Part shown: piece after piece, positions 29,371 through 59,696 of the stretch
Layout: the number at the start of each line of letters is the position of its first letter
Numbering within the stretch: the stretch's first letter is position 1
Assembly: GCA_017522615.1 (NCBI GenBank)
Contig: JAFWYR010000019.1
Span: 21,903 to 85,902, forward strand
From: Bacilli bacterium
Lineage (GTDB): Bacteria; Bacillota_I; Bacilli_A; RF39; UBA660
Length of the DNA stretch: 64,000 nucleotides
Reading direction: 5' to 3'
Notes under the pieces: model-generated
What the model was told of the DNA's origin: nothing
Databases searched by the model: none
Seen by the model: the letters and a program-made list of their open reading frames with translations, nothing else
Made by a program: the position numbers and the translations under genes

Positions 29371-30009
29371 ATGGAATCAAAACACAAAAATGCGTTAATA
29401 GGAGCTTTACTTGCAGTAGTATTTGTAATGGCAGTAGGTTATGCTGCATTTGCTCAGCAACTTACAATCAATGGTACAGCTGAAATCACTTCAAGCTGGG
29501 ATATTCATTATGATCATTCACAAGATACAGTTGATGGTCAAGTAGTTACTAGTCCATCTTGTGTAAGTGGAATGGGTGGTACTACATGTGGTAGTGAATC
29601 TGATACTGCTAATCCTTACGGAACTATCACTTATACTACTGATACTGATGCAACTATTTCAGTTAAGTTAGTTCAACCTGGTGACAAAGTTACTTTCTAT
29701 TTAAAACCTAAGAACTTTGGTACTGGATTAAATGCTACTGGAACTATGTCTATTGCTGATACTACTACATCTGGTTATACAGGAATTACTTTACCTGCTA
29801 CGACAACTGGATTAAAAGCAGCTACTGTTGCAACTAAAGATCATATTCAATTTACAGTAACTCCAACATTTGATAGCAGTTTAGCACCTGGAGAATATGA
29901 TACTATTAAAGTAGAAGCTGAATACTTAAGTAATCAAACTACTAACGAAGTTATTCCACAAACTAAAGCTGGAATTAAAGTATCTATTGATTATACTCAA
30001 GTATCATAA
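29371..30009 (+). CDS. TasA/camelysin-family secreted fibre protein, paralog 1 (SipW-cognate signal peptide)
   Basis: N-terminus 'KHKNALIGALLAVVFVMAVGYAAFAQQLTINGTAEITS' is TasA-like (compare 'GGGTWAAFND...TFASGTLDL'). Core 'VQPGDKVTFYLKPKNFG' parallels TasA 'LKPGDKLTKDFQFENNG'. Own promoter and terminator. Confidence 0.7.
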   Translation: MESKHKNALIGALLAVVFVMAVGYAAFAQQLTINGTAEITSSWDIHYDHSQDTVDGQVVTSPSCVSGMGGTTCGSESDTANPYGTITYTTDTDATISVKLVQPGDKVTFYLKPKNFGTGLNATGTMSIADTTTSGYTGITLPATTTGLKAATVATKDHIQFTVTPTFDSSLAPGEYDTIKVEAEYLSNQTTNEVIPQTKAGIKVSIDYTQVS

Positions 30010-30021
30010 TAATGTTTTGAG

Positions 30022-30049
30022 AGATTACCGTTTTGGTAATCTTTTTTTT
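30022..30049 (+). terminator. Intrinsic terminator
   Basis: 'AGATTACC gtttt GGTAATCT' followed by T7. Confidence 0.65.
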
Positions 30050-30165
30050 GCTTTACACCCCTAGTGTATAGTATTATAATTTTTTGAGTAAACTACTTGA
30101 TGAAGTGTTAAAAAAATGTTATATTCAATTTAGGTTAAATATTTTATGTGTGAGGAGGAATAATT

Positions 30166-30783
30166 ATGGAGGCAAAACACAAAAATATGCTTATAGTTGC
30201 ACTACTTGCTTTAGTTATGATTATGGCCGTTGGTTATGCAGCATTTGCTCAAAATTTAAATATTAATAGTACATCTGAGGTTAGTTCTAAGTGGGAAGTT
30301 AAGATAACTAATATTGCTGTAAAAAAAGTTATGGTTGGTGGAGTAGAACAAGATGATATAACTGGTACAGCTAGTAATAAAACTACTTTTGCAGTTGATG
30401 AGGATTTCCCTTCAACTTCTGCAACAATTAACGAAGCTGGAACTATGGCTAGATTTAGTTCTGAATTAAGATCTCCTGGAGATTCTATAACTTATGATGT
30501 AACTATTACTAATAGTGGAACTTTAAATGCTAAAGTTGGGGATATTCAGTTTGAAGAAGCTAACGCAACAACTCACTGTATTAAAAATGGTACTACTTGT
30601 TTAGAGGATGATCCTATTTATTATGGATTTACAGGTCTTGCTCAAAACGATGTTATTACAGCTAATGGTGGAACTGCTCATGTTTATGTAACTGTAACTT
30701 ACGATGAAAATGTAACTTCACAACCTGAAGCTAATATTGAAAAAGATGCTACTTTAAGAGTAGACTGTGTACAGGCACAATAA
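30166..30783 (+). CDS. TasA/camelysin-family secreted fibre protein, paralog 2
   Basis: 'KHKNMLIVALLALVMIMAVGYAAFAQNLNINSTSEVSS'; core 'RSPGDSITYDVTITNSGTLNAKV'. Confidence 0.7.
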   Translation: MEAKHKNMLIVALLALVMIMAVGYAAFAQNLNINSTSEVSSKWEVKITNIAVKKVMVGGVEQDDITGTASNKTTFAVDEDFPSTSATINEAGTMARFSSELRSPGDSITYDVTITNSGTLNAKVGDIQFEEANATTHCIKNGTTCLEDDPIYYGFTGLAQNDVITANGGTAHVYVTVTYDENVTSQPEANIEKDATLRVDCVQAQ

Positions 30784-30809
30784 AGAACTTTTATATAAGT
30801 TCTTTTTTT
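30783..30809 (+). terminator. Intrinsic terminator
   Basis: 'AAGAACTT ttatat AAGTTCTT' followed by T6. Confidence 0.65.
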
Positions 30810-30866
30810 GTATTGATTGTATTTTTTTTTTATGTTATATTAATAATAGGATAGGAGAGTGTTATA

Positions 30867-31481
30867 ATGGCTAAGCCAAGAAAAGTTGAGAAAAAAGATA
30901 CTAGTAAGGATGAAATTTTTAAGAATGTAATGATTGGAGTTTTAGTTGCAATAATTGTTGTCATGGGACTTGGATATGCAGCTTTTACTCAGCAACTTAC
31001 TATTAATGGTACTGCAGAGATAACAAGTAAATGGGATGTTCATATCAAATCTATTGTTCCTGATAAGAATGCTACTTCAGTTACTGAAGAGGGTAATGTA
31101 AGATATACTTCTGCTGGAAGTATTAGTTCTTCTGTATTAAACGCAAATACAGCTGAATTTTCTGCTGTTTTAGTTGCTCCTGGGGATACTGTTAATTATA
31201 CTGTAACTGTAGAAAATAGTGGGACATTAGATGCTAAAATTGATACTAATGGTATTGTATTTAGTGATTTAACACAGATGAATAAACTAGCTAATAATAC
31301 AGCTGATGATGCTATAGTATTTAGTTATTCTGGTATTGGTGATGGTACTGTTATTAATAAAAATGGTGGAACTAATGTATTTACTATTTCTGTAACTTAT
31401 AATTCTAGATTTACATCACAACCAGAAGGTGGACAACTTAGAAAGAATTTAGAAATGATTTTAAATTATATTCAAGCTTAA
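30867..31481 (+). CDS. TasA/camelysin-family secreted fibre protein, paralog 3
   Basis: 'VMGLGYAAFTQQLTINGTAEITSKWDV'; core 'VAPGDTVNYTVTVENSGTLDAKI'. Confidence 0.7.
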   Translation: MAKPRKVEKKDTSKDEIFKNVMIGVLVAIIVVMGLGYAAFTQQLTINGTAEITSKWDVHIKSIVPDKNATSVTEEGNVRYTSAGSISSSVLNANTAEFSAVLVAPGDTVNYTVTVENSGTLDAKIDTNGIVFSDLTQMNKLANNTADDAIVFSYSGIGDGTVINKNGGTNVFTISVTYNSRFTSQPEGGQLRKNLEMILNYIQA

Positions 31482-31622: not shown

Positions 31623-32762
31623 ATGAAAAAGAACTTAATCATTTATGGTCTTCTTATAGGTTATTTACTATTGAACACGTTTGTTCTTTTGCCTATGAAT
31701 TTAAATTATTACAATGAAATTATTAATCCTTGTTTATGGATGATGATTTGCGGTGTTAGTGCTTTTCTAAGCAATGGTGCATCGTTAAGAATAAAAGGTG
31801 AAAGAGATAAAATTCAAAGTTTGATAATAGTAATGATAATTTATGTTATTTGTTACTTTTTACTTGGTTTGGTGTTCGGCTTTGAGAAGACTCCGTATGC
31901 TAAGGATGTACTTAGTATACTTCGAAATTTATGGTCGTTTGTAGGAATTGTATTTTTTCAAGAATTTATTCGAGAAACAGTTGTTAGAAATGAAAAAAAG
32001 AATATACTTAATTATTTGATTATTGTTGTACTGTTTACTTTCTTACAATTAAATTTATCAAATTTTGCTTCAAACTTTTCAGATGTTAAAACTACATTTA
32101 TATATGCTTCTACAACTTTGATTCCGGGTTTTTTGGAAAGTGCGATATTGACTTATTTGGTATATATTGGTGGCTTTAAAGCTAGCATTATATATAGACT
32201 ATTTGTAATGGTTCCTCCATTTATTGTACCAATTATTCCTAGTTTGGACTGGTTTGGTATTGCGATGATGGGAATTGTACTTCCTATGGGTGTATATATT
32301 TATTTGAATTATATACATGTTAAAAGGTCAGAACAACTTTCTAGGAAAGAAAGGCGAAAATATAATCCAGTTGTATATGTTCCGGTGTTTGTATTTATCG
32401 GACTATTAGCAGGATTTGTTGTTGGTTTGTTTAAATATCAACCAATAGCAGTTGTTTCTGGAAGTATGTCTCCGACATTTAATAGGGGAGATGCAGCAGT
32501 TATAAGAAAATTAACTACACAGGAAAAGGATAAGCTTAAAGTTGGAGATGTAATCCAATTTGTAAGTGGTACTAAATTTGTTATTCATAGAATTTATGAT
32601 ATTTCAAATGATGAGTATGGAAATAAGCTATTTATCACTAAGGGTGATCATAATAATGCTCCAGATGTTGGTAAGGTACATTTAGAAGAAGTAAAAGGAA
32701 AAGTTTCATTTATTATTCCACTAATCGGTTATCCATCAGTATGGCTTAGTGGAGCAATTTAA
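31623..32762 (+). CDS. Fusion protein: N-terminal ~7-TM membrane domain plus C-terminal archaeal-type signal peptidase I (SipW-like)
   Basis: C-terminal ~110 aa carry the SPase I box B 'VVSGSMSPTF' and 'GDHNNAPD' (box D-like). The N-terminal 270 aa are polytopic and hydrophobic. Own extended -10 promoter 'TGTGTTATAAT' at 31564-31574. Confidence 0.7.
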   Translation: MKKNLIIYGLLIGYLLLNTFVLLPMNLNYYNEIINPCLWMMICGVSAFLSNGASLRIKGERDKIQSLIIVMIIYVICYFLLGLVFGFEKTPYAKDVLSILRNLWSFVGIVFFQEFIRETVVRNEKKNILNYLIIVVLFTFLQLNLSNFASNFSDVKTTFIYASTTLIPGFLESAILTYLVYIGGFKASIIYRLFVMVPPFIVPIIPSLDWFGIAMMGIVLPMGVYIYLNYIHVKRSEQLSRKERRKYNPVVYVPVFVFIGLLAGFVVGLFKYQPIAVVSGSMSPTFNRGDAAVIRKLTTQEKDKLKVGDVIQFVSGTKFVIHRIYDISNDEYGNKLFITKGDHNNAPDVGKVHLEEVKGKVSFIIPLIGYPSVWLSGAI

Positions 32763-32781
32763 TAAGAAGGGGAGAATTTAG

Positions 32782-33891
32782 ATGACAAAAGCAAAGCGAA
32801 AAGAAAATGAAAACAAAGTTATTTTAAAACAGTGGGTTAGGGTATTTATTTTAATTGTTACTATAGCTGTTATGATTACTTCTATAGTTTCAATTGCTAA
32901 ATCTTTAAATCCAGAAGTGATTATGAATAAAAAACTATATTCATATAATTACAATTCTGGTATGAATTATAAGGTATATTTGAAAAACAATAGTTTTTTC
33001 ACTTCGCCTTATATGCCAATGAATAAACAATATATTACTTCAATTATCGATCATATTGAGGTAGAAGCAAAGTATGATTTTACTAGTGATACTGATTTAG
33101 CTTATGACTATAGTTATAGTATTAAAGCTACTGCTAGAGGAATGGCTGAAGACTCTGATGGTAAGAAGATCGATGTATGGTCTAAAGAGTATCCTTTAGT
33201 ACCTGAGACTAAAAATACTGGTACTGGTAGAAAGGTTACTATTTCTAAAACATTTAATGTAGATTATAATTATTATAATCAAGTACTTACTGATTTTCGT
33301 AATCAATTTGGATTATCTGTAGATGCTAGAGTAGATGTTACATTTAATGTTAAGATTAATGGTGGTATGCCTGGCGCTGCGACTAAATCATTACAAGAAA
33401 ATAAATCTATGACTTTACAAATGCCTTTACTTGTTCAAACATTAAAGATTAAACCTGACTTTGTAAATAATGGTGGAGATACAGTATATGAAAAATTAGA
33501 TGATCAAGGTAAAAAGATAGATGTTAATTTATTAGTAATTGGTGTATTATTGTTAGCTGTTTCTATTATTGTACTTATTAAAGTTGGTAAGAGTTTACTT
33601 GTTGTAACTAGAAAATCTGAATATATTTTAGCTGTTAACAAGATTCTTAAAGATTATGGTGACATTATTGCTGAAACTCACAATATGCCTGATTTAAATA
33701 AATATGATATTGTTAATATTAAAAACTTTGTAGATATGGTTGATATCGAAGAAGAATTACATTCACCTATTATCTATTTTGAAATTGAAGAAGATTCTAA
33801 ATGTGTATTCTTGATTCTTAATGAGAATACTGCTTATAGATTCTTACTAAAAGAATCAGATTTCGATCATTTCAACGCTAAATCTAAATAA
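32782..33891 (+). CDS. Bitopic membrane protein (TM near the N-terminus and near residue 250), TasA-locus associated, unknown function
   Basis: 369 aa; TM 'VFILIVTIAVMITSIVSIA' and TM 'LLVIGVLLLAVSIIVLI'; extracytoplasmic beta-rich middle segment; cytoplasmic acidic tail. Coupled 19 nt after the SipW fusion. Confidence 0.45.
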   Translation: MTKAKRKENENKVILKQWVRVFILIVTIAVMITSIVSIAKSLNPEVIMNKKLYSYNYNSGMNYKVYLKNNSFFTSPYMPMNKQYITSIIDHIEVEAKYDFTSDTDLAYDYSYSIKATARGMAEDSDGKKIDVWSKEYPLVPETKNTGTGRKVTISKTFNVDYNYYNQVLTDFRNQFGLSVDARVDVTFNVKINGGMPGAATKSLQENKSMTLQMPLLVQTLKIKPDFVNNGGDTVYEKLDDQGKKIDVNLLVIGVLLLAVSIIVLIKVGKSLLVVTRKSEYILAVNKILKDYGDIIAETHNMPDLNKYDIVNIKNFVDMVDIEEELHSPIIYFEIEEDSKCVFLILNENTAYRFLLKESDFDHFNAKSK

Positions 33892-44549: not shown

Positions 44550-44617
44550 TTTTTTTTATTATTTAAAAGTAAATGTGAATATTTTATAGAATAATTATTT
44601 ATGAGGGGGTGATAACG

Positions 44618-46612
44618 ATGAAGAAGTATCCTTTTGTAAAGCAAACTGGATTAAAAGATTGTGGTCCAGCATGTAGTTTGATGATTATAAAATACTATGG
44701 CGGTTATGTAAGTTTAGATAAACTATGTGAAATTATGAAAACAAATAAGAGTGGAACTACTGCTTACCATATAATTAAGGCATTTAGATTATTTGGATTT
44801 GAATGTGATGGCTTTAAATATGACGATATTTCTTTAGTTAGTTTTCCAAGTATTATGCATATAAAAACTAACTCCTACACCCATTATGTTGTAATATGGA
44901 AAATAGACTATAAAAGAAATTATGTTATTGTTGGAGATCCATTTAAAGGAAATATTAACATGAAAATATCAGATTTTATTTCTATATGGACAGGTTATAC
45001 TATTTCTATGAATCCTATTAAAAAGATAGTTAAAGAAGAAAAACCTAAAGTATTTAGTTTTTTATATAATTTAATTAAACCAAATGTTAAATATTTAATT
45101 ATTACAAGTATTCTTTCTTTATTTACTGTGTTTTTTTCTATAATTCTTTCTTTCTTTGTTCAAATAATCATTTCTAATATGAATAGTAATTATTTGTTTT
45201 TGATTTTGGTTTTCTTTATCTTTTTAATGATTTTAAATGCGGTTTTTAATTATTTTCGAAATTTATTTATGGTAAGATTTGGTAATAAGCTCGATAAATT
45301 GTTATCATATAATACTTTTTCATCTATTATTAGACTCCCTTATGAAGCGTGCCTAAGTAAAACGACTGGAGAGACAATGAGCTTTTATAATGATTTATTT
45401 TTGATCAAAAGTTTTGCATTAAAAATAGCGGTTACATTTTTAATTGATATTCCAATTATTTTATTTGTTTCTTTGTATTTCTTTAAGAATTCATTTTATC
45501 TTTTTTTAATTAATATTGGTTTTTTAATATTATATTTATGTTATTTTTTATATAATAAGAAGAAAGTACTATTTTTGTCTAGCGAAGTACTTAATTCAAA
45601 ATCTATAGTAAATTCTTTTATTACGGAATGTGTTTCCGGGTTTGAAAGTATTAGAAATTTAAATATTCAATCTAAAATGAATGAAAGATTTAAAAGGAAT
45701 TATGACAATTATTATGATATAAATGATCGTTATGAATATTTTAGAATAAAAAAATTATTTTTTAAAGATTTATTTTCTAATTTATATTTTATTTTGATAG
45801 TAGCTATTTGTTTGAATAATTCTTTTAAATTATTTTTTACAATTTATTATCTTTCATCTTTATTTATTTCCTCTTTAGAAAATCTTTTTAATTATGATTT
45901 TGAATTTAGTGAGGTTATATCTTCTATTAGTCATATAGAGTATTTGTCTTTAAAAAAATTAAACAAGGAGGAGAATAATTTTTTTGGAGATATTAGTATT
46001 AGTAATTTAATGTATAGTTATGATGGTATAAAAAATGTTTTAAACAATATTAATTTAAAGATAAAAAAAGGAGAAAAGATATTAGTTAGTGGTGAAAGCG
46101 GTAGTGGTAAAAGTACACTATTTAGAATTATTAAAGGATTTTATGATGACTATAATGGTAAGGTTACGATAGGAAAATACGATTTAAAAAAATATGATTT
46201 TAATAATATTTTATATGTTTCTTCTGAAGAGACATTATTTACTGGAAGGATAATCGATAATTTAAATATTAGAAATTTAGATTTTGATAGAGATATGTGT
46301 GAAATAGATGATTTTGCTATTGATAATAATGTTATTTTAGAAAATGGATTTAATTTATCTAGTGGTCAAAGACAGCGGATAGGACTTACTAGAGTAGGTA
46401 AATTTGATATTTTGATAATTGATGAAGGATTGTCTTGCGTAGATATTAGTATGGAAAGACGTATTTTAAAGAGACTTTTTAAAAAGAATTTAGATAAAAC
46501 TATTATTTTTATTTCTCATAGGCTCGATAATTTAGATCTTTTTGAAAGATTTATTAAACTCTCTTCTGGTAAAATAATAGTCGATGAGGTACGCAATTAT
46601 GAAAGGATGTGA
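44618..46612 (+). CDS. Peptidase-C39-containing ABC transporter (PCAT; double-glycine leader peptide exporter)
   Basis: N-terminal C39 domain with catalytic Cys in 'KDCGPACSLMI' and His in 'HYVVI'. 6-TM domain. NBD has Walker A 'GESGSGKST', signature 'LSSGQRQRIGL', Walker B 'ILIIDE', and H-loop 'ISHRL'. Confidence 0.85.
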   Translation: MKKYPFVKQTGLKDCGPACSLMIIKYYGGYVSLDKLCEIMKTNKSGTTAYHIIKAFRLFGFECDGFKYDDISLVSFPSIMHIKTNSYTHYVVIWKIDYKRNYVIVGDPFKGNINMKISDFISIWTGYTISMNPIKKIVKEEKPKVFSFLYNLIKPNVKYLIITSILSLFTVFFSIILSFFVQIIISNMNSNYLFLILVFFIFLMILNAVFNYFRNLFMVRFGNKLDKLLSYNTFSSIIRLPYEACLSKTTGETMSFYNDLFLIKSFALKIAVTFLIDIPIILFVSLYFFKNSFYLFLINIGFLILYLCYFLYNKKKVLFLSSEVLNSKSIVNSFITECVSGFESIRNLNIQSKMNERFKRNYDNYYDINDRYEYFRIKKLFFKDLFSNLYFILIVAICLNNSFKLFFTIYYLSSLFISSLENLFNYDFEFSEVISSISHIEYLSLKKLNKEENNFFGDISISNLMYSYDGIKNVLNNINLKIKKGEKILVSGESGSGKSTLFRIIKGFYDDYNGKVTIGKYDLKKYDFNNILYVSSEETLFTGRIIDNLNIRNLDFDRDMCEIDDFAIDNNVILENGFNLSSGQRQRIGLTRVGKFDILIIDEGLSCVDISMERRILKRLFKKNLDKTIIFISHRLDNLDLFERFIKLSSGKIIVDEVRNYERM

Positions 46613-46752
46613 TTTTTATTATTTTAAGTAAAGAAGAGCTAATTAAAGTAAATGGTGGTGGACCAAATTTTACTCTGATTGGTGGTATAGGAGCTGCGAT
46701 TGCATTTTTAATTAGTTTAGTTGATGGTTTTTTAAACCCTGGTAAGTGCTGA
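46609..46752 (+). CDS. Double-glycine-leader peptide A (bacteriocin/pheromone-like), not in the ORF track
   Basis: Reading frame '(M)IFIILSKEELIKVNGG|GPNFTLIGGIGAAIAFLISLVDGFLNPGKC*'. Leader fits LSxxELxxIxGG. The start codon is uncertain: GTG at 46609 overlaps the ABC stop, and in-frame ATT at 46612/46618 is the alternative. The previous in-frame stop is at 46600. Confidence 0.6.
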   Translation: MIFIILSKEELIKVNGGGPNFTLIGGIGAAIAFLISLVDGFLNPGKC

Positions 46753-46913
46753 TGAAGTTATCTAATGAAGAGTTAATTAATATTAGTGGTGGAGCGGTTA
46801 CATCGACATTTATAAATGCAGCAGTTAAAGGAATAACTTTATTGATAGAACTAGGTAAGAGCTTAGGTTCGACTATTAGAAGAATATCTGAAAAGAAAAG
46901 TTGTTCTATATAA
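46752..46913 (+). CDS. Double-glycine-leader peptide B (bacteriocin/pheromone-like), not in the ORF track
   Basis: ATG overlaps the stop of peptide A (TGATG). 'MKLSNEELINISGG|AVTSTFINAAVKGITLLIELGKSLGSTIRRISEKKSCSI*'. Leader fits LSxxELxxIxGG; the mature part has a GxxxG motif. Followed by a strong terminator. Confidence 0.7.
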   Translation: MKLSNEELINISGGAVTSTFINAAVKGITLLIELGKSLGSTIRRISEKKSCSI

Positions 46914-48978: not shown

Positions 48979-50043
48979 ATGGCAGTAGTATCAATGAATT
49001 TACTACTAGAGGCTGGTGTTCATTTTGGACATCAGACTAAAAGATGGAATCCTAAAATGAAGGAGTACATCTTTACAGCTAGAGATGAGATCTATATTAT
49101 CGATTTACAAAAAACAGCTAAAAAGTTAGAAGAAGCTTATAATGCTTTAAAAGAGATTGTGGCAAATGGAGGAAAAGTTTTATTTGTCGGAACTAGAAAA
49201 CAAGCTAGTGAAGCAGTTAAGGATGAAGCTCTTAGAAGTGGTTCATTCTATGTTAATGAAAGATGGCTTGGAGGAACACTTACAAACTTTAAGACAATCA
49301 GAAGAAGAGTTAGAAGACTTGAACAAATAGAAAAGATGGAAAAAGATGGTATTTTTGAATTACTTCCTAAGAAAGAAGTTATTCATATTAAGAAAGAATA
49401 TAATAAATTAAATAAACTATTATGTGGTATTAGAGATATGTACAAATTACCACAAGCTATGTTTATCGTAGATCCATCTAAAGAAGAAATTGCAATTAGA
49501 GAAGCTAGAAAATTAAATATTCCAGTATTTGGTATTGTAGATACAAACTGTGATCCAGATATGGTTGATTATGTAATTCCTGGTAACGATGATGCAATTA
49601 GAGCAGTTAAATTAGTTACTGGTGTAATTAATAATGCTATTGTCGAAGCTAACGGCGGAAAATTAGTCGATTATGTAAGTGATAACAGAAAAGAAGAAGG
49701 CGAAGATATAATGAAGAAAGCCTTGGAAACTGTTAAGAGAAAAGAAGATAGAAGACCTAGATTCGACCGTAAATCTGATAGAAAATTTTATAATAGATCA
49801 TCTGAAAAAGTAGAAAGAAAAACTACTAGAAAAGAAGCTTTTAAACCTAAAACTGAGGAAAAAGCTCCTGAGAAAAAAGCTGAAGTTAAAGAAGTAAAAG
49901 AAGTTAAAGCTAAAAAAGAAAAAGCCACTGTAGATTTATCTACTAAAACTGTAGCTGAACTTCGTGAAATGGCTAAAGCTAAAGAAATTAAAGGTATTTC
50001 TACTATGAAAAAAGCTGAATTAATCGAAGCTTTAAGTAAGTAA
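48979..50043 (+). CDS. rpsB: 30S ribosomal protein S2 with ~100-aa basic C-terminal extension ending in a Rho_N/SAP-like motif
   Basis: '[27 protein letters not shown]' is the canonical S2 start. ATG 48979 with 'AAAGGAGGA' SD. C-terminus '[35 protein letters not shown]'. Confidence 0.9.
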
Positions 50044-50096: not shown

Positions 50097-50966
50097 ATGA
50101 TTAGTGCGAGTTTAATTAAGGATTTAAGAGAAAAAACTGGTGCAGGAATGCTTGATTGTAAAAAAGCATTAGAGGAAAATGGAGGAGACATCGATAAAGC
50201 AATTGATTGGCTTCGTGAGAAAGGTATTTCTAAAGCTGCTAAAAAAGCTGATAGAGTAGCAGCTGAAGGAGTTGCTGCTATTTTAACTAAAGGTAACGAT
50301 GCAGTAATTTTAGAGATGAATTCTGAAACAGATTTTGTCGCTAAAAACGATAAATTTACAGAACTTGTTAAAACTATTTTAGAGACTGTTATCGATAGTA
50401 AAGCTAATAGTTTAGAGGATGTTTTAAATTTAACTTGTGGTGATAGTACTATCAATGATTTAATTGTTGAAAATACAGCTACTATAGGTGAAAAATTATC
50501 TCTTAGAAGAATTGCTAGAGTAAGTAAAGAAGATAATGAATCATTTGGTGAATATATTCACATGGGTGGTAAAATTGCTGTTTTAATAGTTACTGAAGGA
50601 ACTTCAGAAGAAGTTGCTAAAGATGTAGCTATGCATGCAGCTGCTATGAGACCAACTTATGTAAGTGAAGAAGATGTTCCTAGTGAAGAAGTTGAAAAAG
50701 AAAAAGCTGTACTTACTGAACAAGCTATGAATGAAGGAAAACCTGAAGAAATAGCTAAGAAAATGGTTCAAGGAAGAATTAAAAAATTCTTTAAAGAAAT
50801 TTGTTTAGAAGAGCAACCATTTGTTAAAGATAGCGATGTAAATGTTAAAACTTTCGTTAAAAATAATGGTGGAAGTATTAAAGCTATGTATAGATTTGAA
50901 GTTGGTGAAGGAATCGAGAAAAAAGAAGAGAACTTTGCCGAAGAAGTTGCTAAACAATTAAAATAA
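50097..50966 (+). CDS. tsf: Elongation factor Ts
   Basis: '[20 protein letters not shown]' UBA-like N-terminus; EF-Ts dimerisation domain. Confidence 0.9.
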
Positions 50967-50989
50967 GCGTCTTGTTAGATGCTTTTTTT
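50965..50989 (+). terminator. Intrinsic terminator after tsf
   Basis: 'AAGCGTCT tgtt AGATGCTT' followed by T7. Confidence 0.6.
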
Positions 50990-51200
50990 GTATTTATGTG
51001 TAAAAAATGTATAAAGTAATATTGGTGTTGATTTTGCAAAAATATTAATTGTTTTTTTTTTGTTTTTTTTGATAAAATTGGTATGTCATAAAAAATAGGA
51101 AGGGTAGAGAAAAAAATAACACATAAAAAATAGTAAAAGACTAGAAAAAAGAGAAGATATGTGATATCCTTAAGAAGGATAGAAGAGGAGTGAATAAAAA

Positions 51201-52553
51201 ATGAGACAAAGTGGGAGAGATAAAAGAAATTATTTAATTATTGGACTATGTGCCGTAGTAGCAATAATGGCAGTAGGATTTGCGGCATTTAGTCAGCAGC
51301 TAACAATTAATTCAACATCGGAAGTAACAAGTTCATGGTGTGTAGGATTTGATACAAGTAAGACTACTGATTATGTAGCGACTCCAGGACTATCTGGAGC
51401 TACTACACCAACAGCAACAATGTCATATAGTGGAAATACTTGCGGAAGTGATAATCTTCAAACAGGAGCAAGTTTATCTGCAACATTTAAACAACCAGGG
51501 GATCAGGTAGTATATACATTTACAATTAAGAATGCATCAACACTTAATGCCAAATTAGATAGTATAAATGAGAATTTAACAACATCAAATTCAGCTATAG
51601 AGTATGAACTATCAGGAGCTAAGGCAAATGATATTCTTGGGCCAAATGATACTACGACATTAATAGTAACAGTAAGATATAAAGATAGTATAACTAACTA
51701 ACCAGAAGTAACAACATGGGGACTTGAGTTAAAACTTAATTTTTCACAGACAAGTGATTCACCAGTTCCACCAGTGCCTACATATACAGTTAATGATTTA
51801 AAAGCAAATACTGTCACAACAGGAGATGGACTTTATGATAATGGTGATGGAACATATACTTATAAAGGAAGTAATCCTGCTAATTATTTAAGCTTTGCAG
51901 GAAATATTTGGAGAATACTTGGAATAGATTCAACTGGTATTAAAATTATTTCTAATGAAAGAATAGATTTAACAGGTTATTCTGGCGTAGTAGGATCAAA
52001 TAGTTTACTAGGTCAATTTGATGGACAAGGACTTAGAGATTCTTCTAGTAATGGTGCAGGTGGAACATACTGTTCACAAGGGTCATATGGATGTAATATT
52101 TGGTCAAGAGATTATACACCATCTGGAGACTATACAAATGGTAGTTATACAGGAACTGTATTATTAGATTCAGAGCTTAAAACATTTTTAAATGGAACGT
52201 ATTATACTAGTACTCTTAATTCAAATTCAAATATAATAGATGGTACATATAATGTAGGACCATATAATAATGAATCATCATATACATGGACAGGTAAAGT
52301 AGCCCTTTTAACTGCTCCTGAGTATAGGGCAGCAGGAGGCTCATCATCATATCTTAAAAAGTCCTTTAATTGGTGGCTTTTGTCTCCGAGCGCGAGTAAT
52401 GCGTACAGCGTGTTCTGCGTTTATAGTGGCGGCGACATCACGGGCAACGGCGCGCACTACAGCAGTGGTGTCCGCCCTGTTCTCTATCTTTCATCAAATA
52501 TCACACTTTCGGGTTCAGGAACAGACTCTAATAATGCTTTCACAATTTCATAA
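51201..52553 (+). pseudogene. TasA-like protein (paralog 4) fused in frame, across a single TAA, to a C-terminal ~280-aa Gly/Ser/Thr/Tyr-rich domain with a GC-rich 3' end
   Basis: N-terminal 166 aa: 'LCAVVAIMAVGFAAFSQQLTINSTSEVTSSW' plus 'KQPGDQVVYTFTIKNASTLNAKL'. TAA at 51699-51701 sits within '(TAAC)3'. The same frame continues 'PEVTTWGLELKLNFSQ...' to 52553. The final ~150 nt are ~58% GC. Confidence 0.55.
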
Positions 52554-52595
52554 CAAAAAACAAATAAGGTAGTAGAATAGATATAATAAGAAGAA

Positions 52596-52700
52596 GCGTC
52601 ATTCGCTTGGCGAATGCGCAAGGGTCTCTATGAAATGTAGGCCGGCATCTTTGATAGGTAAAATAAAAGTCCACGAGGGAATCCGAGTGGAAGATTAAAA
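52596..52700 (+). ncRNA. Candidate structured cis-regulatory RNA / GC-rich leader upstream of the L,D-transpeptidase-like gene (class undetermined)
   Basis: Local GC about 50% versus ~28% genome background. Perfect hairpin 'CATTCGC ttg GCGAATG', then 'GCGCAAGGGUCU...AGGCCGGC', then hairpin 'TCCAC..GTGGA'. No ORF of substance. Confidence 0.25.
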
Positions 52701-52770
52701 TAGGTAAAATATCTAATAGTAATGCATATAATTAAAGTATCGAAGTCGATACTTTTTTGGAGTGATTTTT

Positions 52771-53352
52771 ATGGAAGAATTATTTATTTTAGATAGTGAG
52801 AGTAAGAAAATTAATGTTTATTTAGACGACAAATTAATTAAGATTATAGATGATGTCAGAATTGGACTAAATGGCGTTTGTGATTATAATGATATGGTAG
52901 AAGGTGGAAAGAGAACACCTAGGGGACTATATAATTTAGGGGTTGCTTTTGGAAGATATGATTTAAATATAAATTATCCATATATTAAAATAGATAATGG
53001 TAGTTATTGGGTAGATGATATTAATTCTAAGTATTATAATTCTTTTGTAGAAGTAGATGGTAGTGTAGATACATTTGGATATGATTATATTTTTAATTTG
53101 AATAAAAAAGAATTTAATTCAGCTGAGCATTTAATTGATTATAAAAAAGCTTATGAATATGGTGTGTTTATAGAATATAATACTGATAATAAAATAAATG
53201 GGCTTGGTAATAATAAGGGTTCAGCTATATTTTTACATTGTTATGGTGAAAGTGATTATACTTATGGATGTGTGGCTATAAGTAGAGATGATATGAAATG
53301 GGTGATTAACTTTTTAGATAGGAATAAAAATCCTCAAATATTAATAAAATAA
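52771..53352 (+). CDS. L,D-transpeptidase (YkuD)-like catalytic-domain protein
   Basis: 'SAIFLHCYGESDYTYGCVAISRDDM' resembles the YkuD His...(S/T)xGC(V/I) active-site arrangement. No signal peptide seen. ATG 52771 with 'GGAGTG' SD. Confidence 0.6.
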   Translation: MEELFILDSESKKINVYLDDKLIKIIDDVRIGLNGVCDYNDMVEGGKRTPRGLYNLGVAFGRYDLNINYPYIKIDNGSYWVDDINSKYYNSFVEVDGSVDTFGYDYIFNLNKKEFNSAEHLIDYKKAYEYGVFIEYNTDNKINGLGNNKGSAIFLHCYGESDYTYGCVAISRDDMKWVINFLDRNKNPQILIK

Positions 53353-56925: not shown

Positions 56926-56938
56926 AAAGGAGGTTATT

Positions 56939-58718: not shown

Positions 58719-59696
58719 TTATTTTGTACATGTCATACCTTGTTCTTTAGCTGCTTTTATAAATGCTTCAGGTGTTTCATCTTCTCCATTAAATTGTGTT
58801 TCAAATAATTTTTCAGCACTACTACGATTAGCAGTTACAGTGAATGTTACAACATTTCCTTTTTTCTCAGATGTTCCTTTTACACCATCAGTTTTTTCGA
58901 ATTCTTTAACCTGTTCTTTAACACTATCGTAGAAAAGATCTATATAATCTTTGTAAGTATCTTCAACAGTATATGTTCCTTTAATCGTAATTACATCAAC
59001 TTTATTACCTTTGAAATCAGTTGTTATTTCACTTTTTATTTTAATACCAGTTTGGCTTTGCTCTTGAGAACATGTTACAGTCTTTTTACCTAAGTTTGGA
59101 ATAAGTAATACTGCAACTGCTATGGCTACAACAACTATTGCGGCAACAATAATAATTATTTTATTGTTTTTAGCTCCTGAATTTTGAGCTGTATTTGCTG
59201 GCATTCCTTGGTTAGCTACGTTATTGTCAAAAGATTGAATCCCTGGGTTATTGTTAAAAGATTGAATTGTTGGTTCAGGATTTGCTGTTTCTGTAGGTGT
59301 AGCCATTGGTTCAGAATTAACTGGTTCAGTAGATGTAGTCATTGGTTCAGGACTAGCTGTTTCTGTAGGTGTAGACATAAGTTCAGGTCCAGTAGGTTCT
59401 GTAGGTCCAAACATAGATTCAGAATTAACTGATTCAGCAGATGTTTCCATAGGTTCAGGATTTGCAGGTTCTGTAGCTCCAAACATAGATTCAGGACTAA
59501 CTGATTCGTTAGGTGTTACTGTAGGTTCAGTAGGTGCATTCATAGGCTCTGGATTATTTCCGATTAATCCTCCTTGAAATATTTGTGTTTTATCATCTAT
59601 TTGTTCATTAGTTGGTGTTGTGTTAATTGGTTGTCCACATTTTGGACAAAACATATCTCCTTCAGGTATTTGATTACCACATTTTGTACATATCAT
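58719..59696 (-). CDS. Zinc-ribbon membrane protein with Pro/Thr/Glu-rich tandem repeats and extracytoplasmic C-terminal domain
   Basis: N-terminal 'CTKCGNQIPEGDMFCPKCGQ' (CxxC...CxxC), about 8 degenerate 'xEPMxT/SPTETxN' repeats, TM 'IIIIVAAIVVVAIAVAVLLI', then a 140-aa domain ending 'GMTCTK'. Confidence 0.55.
   Translation of the reverse strand: MICTKCGNQIPEGDMFCPKCGQPINTTPTNEQIDDKTQIFQGGLIGNNPEPMNAPTEPTVTPNESVSPESMFGATEPANPEPMETSAESVNSESMFGPTEPTGPELMSTPTETASPEPMTTSTEPVNSEPMATPTETANPEPTIQSFNNNPGIQSFDNNVANQGMPANTAQNSGAKNNKIIIIVAAIVVVAIAVAVLLIPNLGKKTVTCSQEQSQTGIKIKSEITTDFKGNKVDVITIKGTYTVEDTYKDYIDLFYDSVKEQVKEFEKTDGVKGTSEKKGNVVTFTVTANRSSAEKLFETQFNGEDETPEAFIKAAKEQGMTCTK
59184..59560. repeat. 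Imperfect tandem repeats (~42-51 nt units) encoding the Pro/Thr-rich linker of the zinc-ribbon protein
   Basis: Reiterated 'ggttcag(g/t)a...gctg(t/g)ttctgtaggt..' units. The + strand ORF 59184-59432 is a frame artefact of the repeats. Confidence 0.6.

Follow-up and report, generated by a model that had tools for sequence, protein, structure and literature searches.

Diversity-generating retroelements (DGRs) copy the RNA of a template repeat (TR) with a dedicated reverse transcriptase (RT) and the protein Avd; adenines are miscopied in the process, and the resulting cDNA overwrites a variable region (VR) in a target gene, randomising about 20 surface residues of its product. Two kinds of described DGR system come closest to the gene considered here. 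One is found in phages: published DGR targets there carry the C-lectin-like domain DUF6273, with the VR placed at the C-terminal end of that domain (PMC10743442, PMC11792537), as in the tentaclins of phages nd4 and nd12 and in the targets of Faecalibacterium prophages. The other comprises cellular DGRs with a MutS-like (MSL) accessory gene and targets that lie remote from the RT, known from Treponema denticola, from Legionella LdtA and as architecture D of Wu et al. 2018 (PMC5758913). Our subject is the gene at 51201 to 52553 of a 64-kb stretch of DNA, referred to below as the window, from a metagenome-assembled genome (MAG) deposited at NCBI as "Bacilli bacterium"; features are on the plus strand unless stated otherwise. 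The gene appears as two open reading frames (ORFs) followed by an unusually GC-rich patch. We consider it likely that these are a single exported adhesin-type gene cut by one C-to-T change, and that the GC-rich island is the variable region of a DGR.

Frame 1 opens at an ATG at 51201 and is closed in the ORF list after 166 codons by a TAA at 51699 to 51701, beyond which another 284 in-frame codons run free of stops to the TAA at 52551 to 52553. The MAG annotates the halves as separate hypothetical proteins: ORF 1 (51201 to 51701; 166 aa, MBR3898371, IKJ43_03725), which holds an N-terminal hydrophobic helix and most of a beta-sandwich, and ORF 2 (51774 to 52553; 259 aa from a GTG, MBR3898372, IKJ43_03730). 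ORF 2 has no signal peptide of its own, and direct inspection found no Shine-Dalgarno-like sequence upstream of its GTG at 51774. When the full-length protein, with the stop replaced by Gln, was used as query, about 80 of the best 120 matches were proteins of 400 to 505 aa that cover at least 94% of it, so the fusion of the N- and C-terminal parts is a conserved architecture. An earlier interpretation made from the nucleotide sequence without database searches (the sequence-only reading) had proposed one gene here, an exported N-terminal module and a lectin-like C-terminal domain parted by one in-frame stop, and the intact orthologues agree with it. The stretch from 51201 to 52553 is thus a single gene for a 450-aa exported protein, in frame 1 with one TAA, intact elsewhere and broken at codon 167 in this assembly.

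The same reading had taken 51201 to 51701 for a typical module, and this did not hold. ORF 1 is an incomplete module, because all three paralogs of the N-terminal part in the window continue for about 25 to 30 residues past the position equivalent to the stop. The beta-sandwich runs beyond that point in the paralogs and also in the AlphaFold model, which places a strand at residues 172 to 183 (...WGLELKLNFSQ). The segment severed from ORF 1, residues 168 to 183 (PEVTTWGLELKLNFSQ; 51702 to 51749), contains this predicted last strand and aligns with the C-terminal strands of the paralogs, which are 204 to 212 aa long.

The nonsense codon at 51699 to 51701 is CAA (Gln167) in all other assemblies. 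In a DNA alignment, position 51699 is T in the window and C in the four contigs L001, L002, L005 and L006, and altogether seven other metagenome contigs carry CAA at this site and encode an intact 450-aa protein. Five of them encode P0123, the exact read-through sequence with Q167, and four of those five are 50 to 200 kb long with the same gene order of rpsB, tsf, target gene and ykuD; the remaining two encode P0001, which differs at two N-terminal residues. From 51229 to 52800 the stop-codon base is the sole difference from L001 and L002. Over 21,353 nt shared with the 92-kb contig L005 there are three differences (99.986% identity), of which the stop base is one, and all three are C-to-T in the window: at 49160, where Ala becomes Val in rpsB (ribosomal protein S2), at 51699, and at 56934, a base beside the ribosome-binding site of an M50 peptidase gene. 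Column 167 is a sense codon in all 40 aligned relatives and Gln, in 27 of the 40, is the family consensus; two of the three window paralogs read TSQPE where the gene at 51201, the fourth of the set, reads TN-stop-PE. Comparison of orthologous loci, which had been suggested as a check, therefore yields an uninterrupted frame with CAA at the site, as expected if a nonsense mutation or a consensus error is the cause.

The TAA lies in ATAACTAACTAACC (51690 to 51703), whose three TAAC units span 51691 to 51702. The sequence-only reading had placed the stop inside this repeat correctly; the repeat is nevertheless a consequence of the change rather than its setting, as the intact allele reads ATAACTAACCAACC. 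Since the corresponding intact stretch is TAACTAACCAAC, it was the mutation that made the third TAAC unit. A sequencing error at a low-complexity site, another of the earlier suggestions, falls on the same ground: the change is a C-to-T substitution that itself creates the third unit.

The proposed event is a single C-to-T transition that would have turned Gln167 (CAA) into TAA. The new stop would sever the beta-sandwich ahead of its last strand and part the export module from the binding domain, and because of both effects the product of the TAA allele is probably non-functional; if the stop is real, the predicted outcome is a 166-aa product without the last beta-strand and a downstream part without signal peptide or convincing start. 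We hold a genuine mutation and a consensus error to be about equally probable as sources of the TAA. Taken by itself, the proposal that it is a consensus or damage artefact of one MAG, with the gene intact in vivo and the DGR reading of the GC island untouched, is a serious possibility that stops short of likely. It draws on the CAA found in seven other contigs, including the 92-kb contig at 99.986% identity, and on the direction of all three differences, C-to-T being the signature of cytosine deamination. Their effects (a nonsense codon, an rpsB missense change and a neighbour of a ribosome-binding site, with none synonymous) are counted on the same side, none of the three looking selectively neutral; the pattern suits a very recent mutation equally well as damage or a consensus error. 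Against an artefact, real mutations in AT-rich genomes are themselves most often C-to-T, a sample of three is too small to judge, and consensus substitution errors are rare at normal coverage. Programmed readthrough or recoding, by which the two ORFs would yield a TasA-lectin fusion, had been a further suggestion; the parts are in frame and the fused product is a conserved architecture, but we regard it as extremely unlikely. The stop is not conserved among the relatives compared above, TAA is the commonest ordinary stop in the window (it closes 28 of the 48 long open frames), no suppressor tRNA occurs in the window, where the only tRNA is tRNA-Leu(GAG), and an Rfam scan of 50900 to 53000 returned a single chance match to a lncRNA (E 0.71). 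That the tetranucleotide repeat acts as a phase-variation switch for the gene is barely credible, even though three perfect TAAC units overlap the stop. An extra unit keeps the TAA and a lost one shifts the frame into a TAA five codons on, so that gain or loss of one 4-nt unit leaves the frame unrepaired, as can be read directly from the sequence; in the other assemblies a base is substituted rather than a unit gained or lost, and three units make a very short tract. Reassignment of TAA in the genetic code was considered and rejected.

The C-terminal part of the gene encodes the domain through which it joins the known DGR targets. Residues 316 to 431 (52146 to 52493) match Pfam DUF6273 (E 4.4e-10; 40.1 bits against a cutoff of 23.5) within a C-type-lectin-like globular domain of residues ~196 to 450. 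AlphaFold models the intact protein with a predicted local distance difference test (pLDDT) score of 87.8 overall and at least 86, mostly at least 95, in every 10-residue block of the C-terminal domain; the predicted parts are an N-terminal helix (residues 3 to 38), beta-sandwich strands (46 to 183) and the globular domain. The lectin-like character named by the sequence-only reading is therefore sound in terms of Pfam family and fold. The family it had put forward, the Fibrobacter succinogenes major paralogous domain (TIGR02145), is replaced by DUF6273: an NCBIfam search with the full 450 aa returned no family at E <= 0.1.

Among solved structures the best match to the model is the Thomasclavelia ramosa IgA peptidase (PDB 9qa6; E 3.8e-6, 307 aligned columns, 17% identity), whose N-terminal domain is DUF6273 (PMC12402451). 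In that protein DUF6273 stands N-terminal to an M64 peptidase, and the text consulted does not describe it as a DGR target. In a library of viral structures the top matches are phage DUF6273 proteins. The window gene shares with the phage targets both the Pfam domain and the place of the VR, its hypervariable positions being residues 397 to 422 of 450, and its relatives likewise show adenine-specific differences between TR and VR. It differs from them in its context, which looks chromosomal and housekeeping-like (rpsB, tsf, ykuD, uppS, cdsA) rather than like a prophage, in its N-terminal partner, a hydrophobic helix and a beta-sandwich that also occurs in SipW-linked paralogs, in place of tail-fibre or Ig/Fn3 modules, and in having no TR or RT nearby.

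The GC content of the window averages 27.1% with a standard deviation of 6.0% (100-nt stretches), and the 100 nt at 52381 to 52480 reach 61%, the highest value in the 64 kb and about 5.7 standard deviations above the mean. That the gene ends in GC-rich sequence had been noticed before, and as an outlier the observation stands in substance (52380 to 52519 sums to 54%); the island sits 75 to 170 nt before the stop codon rather than at the very end. It falls within a region, 52360 to 52486, that is homologous to the template repeats of relatives and that we regard as the variable region in the broad sense; TR/VR homology in those relatives begins and ends at the equivalent points. Its mutagenised core, 52389 to 52466 (codons 397 to 422), is the island itself. 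Across 40 aligned proteins, column entropy at residues 397 to 422 is about 1.5 to 3.5 bits, with means of 2.6 to 2.9 over 401 to 420, against about 0.2 to 1.2 in the flanks, and hypervariability is confined to this segment, between the conserved ...WWLLSP and GVRPVLYLSSNI....

Codon usage changes abruptly with it. The check for codon-usage outliers that had been suggested shows that none of the 26 codons of the core ends in A, compared with 188 of 424 in the rest of the gene (p 5e-7), while G or C occupies the third position in 20 of 26 as against 55 of 424 (p 3e-12). The core contains 21 NNY codons among its 26 and uses GGC for Gly and GCG for Ala, where the rest of the gene uses GGA and GCA. 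When the window VR is set against its closest paralog-type VR (L015), 11 of 16 variable codons differ only at positions 1 and 2. Many family members have a GC island at the equivalent place (0.5 to 0.69, compared with 0.30 to 0.35 over the remainder of the gene), and others lack it.

Beyond the core lies a GC-rich constant end at 52467 to 52486, made up of GGTGTCCGCCCT (52467 to 52478) and then GTTCTCTA, which encodes the conserved GVRPVLY. The same boundary is seen in relatives, where the VR reads ...CGTCCT GTTCTCTA and the TR ...CGTCCT AGCTCTCTA. By analogy with the role described in PMC5758913 for the initiation of mutagenic homology (IMH), this would be an IMH-like constant end. The 5' half of the window VR aligns with the TR of L004 and the 3' half with the TRs of L007 and L099.

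Complete DGR cassettes stand beside homologs of the gene. One belongs to the homolog P0004 (55% identical; contig L004), which is succeeded by a TR, a MutS_I-domain gene, bAvd and an RVT_1 reverse transcriptase. The TR is a 115-nt repeat of the C-terminal segment of P0004 itself, with AAC or AAT where the gene has varied codons; the RT carries the DGR motifs IGNMTSQ and YMDD, and Avd matches NF033474 (E 7e-14). The order of target, hairpin, TR, conserved spacer, MSL, Avd and RT is repeated in L007/L008, L009, L098 and L099 and in the GTDB genomes represented by L067 and L079. All RT homologs examined (P0128, P0134, P0130, P0135, P0132) lie in the same cassette wherever the contig is long enough; L097 has Avd and RT at a contig end that breaks before the TR and does not include the target. 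Five TR/VR pairs together hold 101 A-to-N differences against 20 mismatches at other bases (odds ratio 21, p 4e-39). As a separate observation, the VR of L004 (1752 to 1881 of that contig) is 12 nt longer than the adjacent TR (2086 to 2215) through insertions of 9 and 3 nt, the former resembling a GTG-NNC-NNC unit present in duplicate. Either indels are produced by the DGR, or the VR stems from a template that was older than the adjacent TR or distinct from it.

The relatives' cassette is a DGR with the architecture that Wu et al. (PMC5758913) described for MSL-containing elements. Like the cellular systems of that class it combines target, TR, MSL, Avd and RT, with GC-rich constant flanks around the mutagenised core and a GC-rich inverted repeat downstream, and here too the family has many copies, the majority of them distant from an RT. 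Differences from them are that the window copy has no known cognate TR, and that the inverted repeat comes about 110 nt past the end of the VR, after the stop codon, and not directly after the IMH.

The scale of this multiplication can be gauged from individual genomes. There are at least 12 family loci in MAG E40__bin28, at least six in OZ007038.1, which is a closed 1.54-Mb chromosome, and several in "Candidatus Coprosoma intestinipullorum". Among 80 loci drawn from the genome contig collection (L017 to L096), a full DGR cassette accompanies two, L067 and L079, and an MSL fragment one more, L025.

In both L067 (OZ007038.1; 13190 to 16631) and L079 (CALVWP010000005.1; 4153 to 7597) the DGR RT gene is split exactly within its hallmark motif, between LPIG and NMTSQ, by an insert of about 3.45 kb. 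This insert consists of three tandem tyrosine-recombinase genes (Phage_integrase, E 8e-35, 1e-22 and 3e-26) bounded by terminal inverted repeats of about 92 nt. The two copies are 99.0% identical over 3577 nt, the host genes have diverged, and the genomes belong to two different species; from this disparity between insert and host genes the element has been mobile recently, and it is an apparently site-specific one of the "recombinase in trio" kind that kills or switches the DGR.

The composition of the island would follow from such a template. The TR backbone would consist of AAC and AAT codons set between GCG, GTG, GGC and ATC codons, followed by a GC-rich constant end, and a VR written from it would bear NNC, NNT and NNG codons with few adenines; on this account the backbone codons explain a 61% GC island in a 27% GC genome. 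The sequence-only reading had taken the segment for one recently acquired or recombined, which we replace with a DGR variable region whose composition comes from its template repeat. Foreign DNA of higher GC content, gained by recombination without any retroelement, would account for so strong a compositional outlier, and the locus does have a history of recombination, since L001 and L002 have another context upstream of 50979 and in a related species tsf directly precedes ykuD. We nonetheless judge it very unlikely. The island coincides exactly with the hypervariable columns of an otherwise conserved domain, its NNC/NNT codons are those expected from AAC/AAT template codons, and many relatives show an island there too, several of them next to a TR that differs almost only at adenines; the flanking coding sequence is continuous with the family. 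The composition is thus accounted for by codons taken from the template together with a loss of adenines, and not by DNA of foreign origin.

A number of results weigh against a DGR as the author of this particular copy. No TR was found in the window, either by an ungapped scan of both strands with 50-nt pieces of the VR at 62% identity or more, which returned only the VR itself, or by a general repeat search, and tblastn with the L004 proteins found no RT, Avd or MSL in the 64 kb. A pattern for the cognate TR, in which each VR base may appear as that base or as A, had no match in the genome contig collection, which lacks the window's own genome, and none in the viral contigs; its four matches in the metagenome contigs are all chance poly-A in high-GC contigs. 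None of seven TRs from relatives is cognate, their local alignments having 0 to 8 non-A mismatches and none spanning the whole VR. The eight assemblies, which come from at least five samples and include strains with another upstream context, moreover agree in the VR at 100% identity; at the nucleotide level it is the same in the window, L001, L002, L005 and L006. The 90% protein cluster contains no VR variant, its two full-length sequences sharing one VR. Given this uniformity of assemblies and cluster, nothing indicates that diversification is still under way.

The absence of a TR is weak evidence either way, because the genome collection lacks the window's genome and DGR repeats often break assemblies; L097 and L016 both end at the TR/VR repeats. 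The complete genome OZ007038.1 offers a view of how copies relate to their template. Only one of its family copies, at least six in number, adjoins the DGR, and the five others listed are not cognate to its single TR, so this genome does not demonstrate a DGR that serves remote targets. We think it very likely that the window VR was written by a DGR of the kind found in the relatives. That the element responsible has since been lost is the fate we lean towards, and that it lies elsewhere in the genome we consider doubtful. With its VR identical in all assemblies and no TR or RT in the window, the window copy is at present a static target, either remote from its DGR or orphaned. There are precedents for both, remote targets in PMC5758913 and copies detached from the DGR in OZ007038.1.

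Downstream of the stop codon, a GC-rich inverted repeat with 10-bp arms, GCGTCATTCGC-TTG-GCGAATGCGC, occupies 52596 to 52619; the 100 nt that contain it (52594 to 52693, intergenic, 48% GC) rank second in the window for GC content. The DNA from 52554 to 52761 folds at -22.4 kcal/mol (z -3.55). Relatives have an element of the form (G)GAAAGCG, hairpin and trailing sequence between the stop of the target and the TR, and L079 also has the trailing CGCAAGGG of the window; a similar hairpin element occurs in copies without a TR (L015, L026, L066, L072). A consensus fold of the element over nine loci predicted no pairs, the alignment being too poor, and there was no Rfam match. It may be a DGR-associated cruciform or RNA element.

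The N-terminal module invites comparison with the TasA/SipW system of Bacillus subtilis. Three stand-alone paralogs of it (212, 205 and 204 aa) lie at 29371 to 31481, and the first 131 nt of ORF 1 are repeated in all three (repeat family D2). They stand directly upstream of a gene pair at 31623 to 33891: a 379-aa fusion of a SipW/archaeal-type signal peptidase I with a membrane domain, and a 369-aa DUF5305 protein (Pfam; E 2e-18). The peptidase (31623 to 32762) has a Peptidase_S26 match and scores above the cutoff of TIGR02228 (E 5.5e-27), and at 68.7 bits it is below the cutoff of 190 for the Bacillus SipW model. The gene at 51201 is 20 kb from this peptidase. Likeness to TasA/SipW thus consists in paralogs beside a SipW-type peptidase, a hydrophobic N-terminus and an Ig-like beta-sandwich module. 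The N-terminal hydrophobic segment of the module ends in a conserved A-A-F motif, and the TasA signal has a similar A-A-F-like motif.

In contrast to TasA, the window proteins fall below every family threshold. Profile matches of the paralogs are weak (Peptidase_M73, E 0.21; TIGR04089 exp_by_SipW_III, E 0.002 and 18.2 bits against 60; TIGR04090, E 0.034 and 13.9 bits against 60), and the fourth gene has no match to Peptidase_M73 or TIGR04088 to TIGR04090 in Pfam or NCBIfam. Other donor-strand or pilin-type subunits score alike or better: for a paralog model (pLDDT 69.6) the archaeal AAP pilin 8q30 (E 0.011) and chaperone-usher pilins come out best, and the TasA fibre 8aur follows at rank 31 (E 0.17, probability 0.33). 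Generic Ig-like sandwiches match the N-terminal part of the full-length model, and a PDB profile search with the module found no match. The label TasA-like given by the sequence-only reading is therefore apt loosely, for the SipW-type peptidase beside the paralogs, and too narrow as a family assignment. We take the module to be a SipW-associated carrier of pilin- or fibre-like type that resembles TasA in its role. Export would depend on the SipW-like peptidase, and the lectin-like tip would bind a variable ligand. Proteins P0009 to P0015 (337 to 409 aa; one named DUF11 domain protein by NCBI) share an N-terminal module 79 to 92% identical and differ in having another C-terminal part without DUF6273, for which reason the module seems to be a carrier with swapped heads. 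A literature search found no paper that mentions both DGRs and TasA.

The neighbourhood of the gene has itself been rearranged. Upstream of 50979, L001 and L002 show no relation to the window and carry genes of 168 and 181 aa in place of tsf; they differ from it at 44 positions between 50979 and 51228 and then only at the stop-codon base up to 52800. In L016, from a related species whose tsf region is about 81% identical, ykuD comes straight after tsf, which gives the gene as a whole the look of an insertion between the two. Two other features of the window lie apart from the gene. Six overlapping copies of a tandem repeat with a 36-nt period (59238 to 59530) lie within a minus-strand gene of 325 aa (58719 to 59696), whose counterpart in L001 and L005 carries a Zn-ribbon domain. 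At 44609 to 46913 a C39-peptidase ABC transporter (667 aa) is followed by ORFs of 47 and 55 aa with double-glycine-type leaders (...KVNGG and ...NISGG), which looks like a bacteriocin export cassette.

The gene would thus belong to a family of small-genome gut Bacilli whose proteins are predicted to combine a hydrophobic helix or signal, an Ig-like beta-sandwich common to the three paralogs and a C-terminal DUF6273 ligand-binding domain, the end of which would be the DGR variable region. Neither of its peculiarities is new in kind: one is a gene with a point mutation or a mis-called base, the other a DGR target whose domain class is already described. New in detail are the N-terminal partner, the cellular setting in small-genome gut Bacilli and a multi-copy family most of which is detached from any template. 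Two in-frame ORFs and a foreign-looking GC patch are in this way reduced to two ordinary, explainable things, and the public annotation can be corrected, IKJ43_03725 and IKJ43_03730 being two halves of one gene. Where a genome is very rich in AT, a VR can be flagged cheaply by a short GC-rich stretch that lies at the end of a lectin-like domain and has no codons ending in A, even with the template and RT distant or not in the assembly. A broader picture is speculative and, as a whole, rather unlikely: reduced-genome gut Bacilli ("Candidatus Coprosoma" and CAG:822-type MAGs) might display DGR-diversified DUF6273 heads on a SipW-processed pilin- or TasA-like carrier, in 6 to 12 or more copies per genome that are mostly orphaned from any template, with the three-recombinase element between LPIG and NMTSQ possibly switching or killing the engine and the window copy a frozen target in decay. 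The DUF6273 class of DGR targets gains a cellular, non-phage context and a new N-terminal partner, which bears on how surface-binding proteins vary in uncultured small-genome gut Bacilli.

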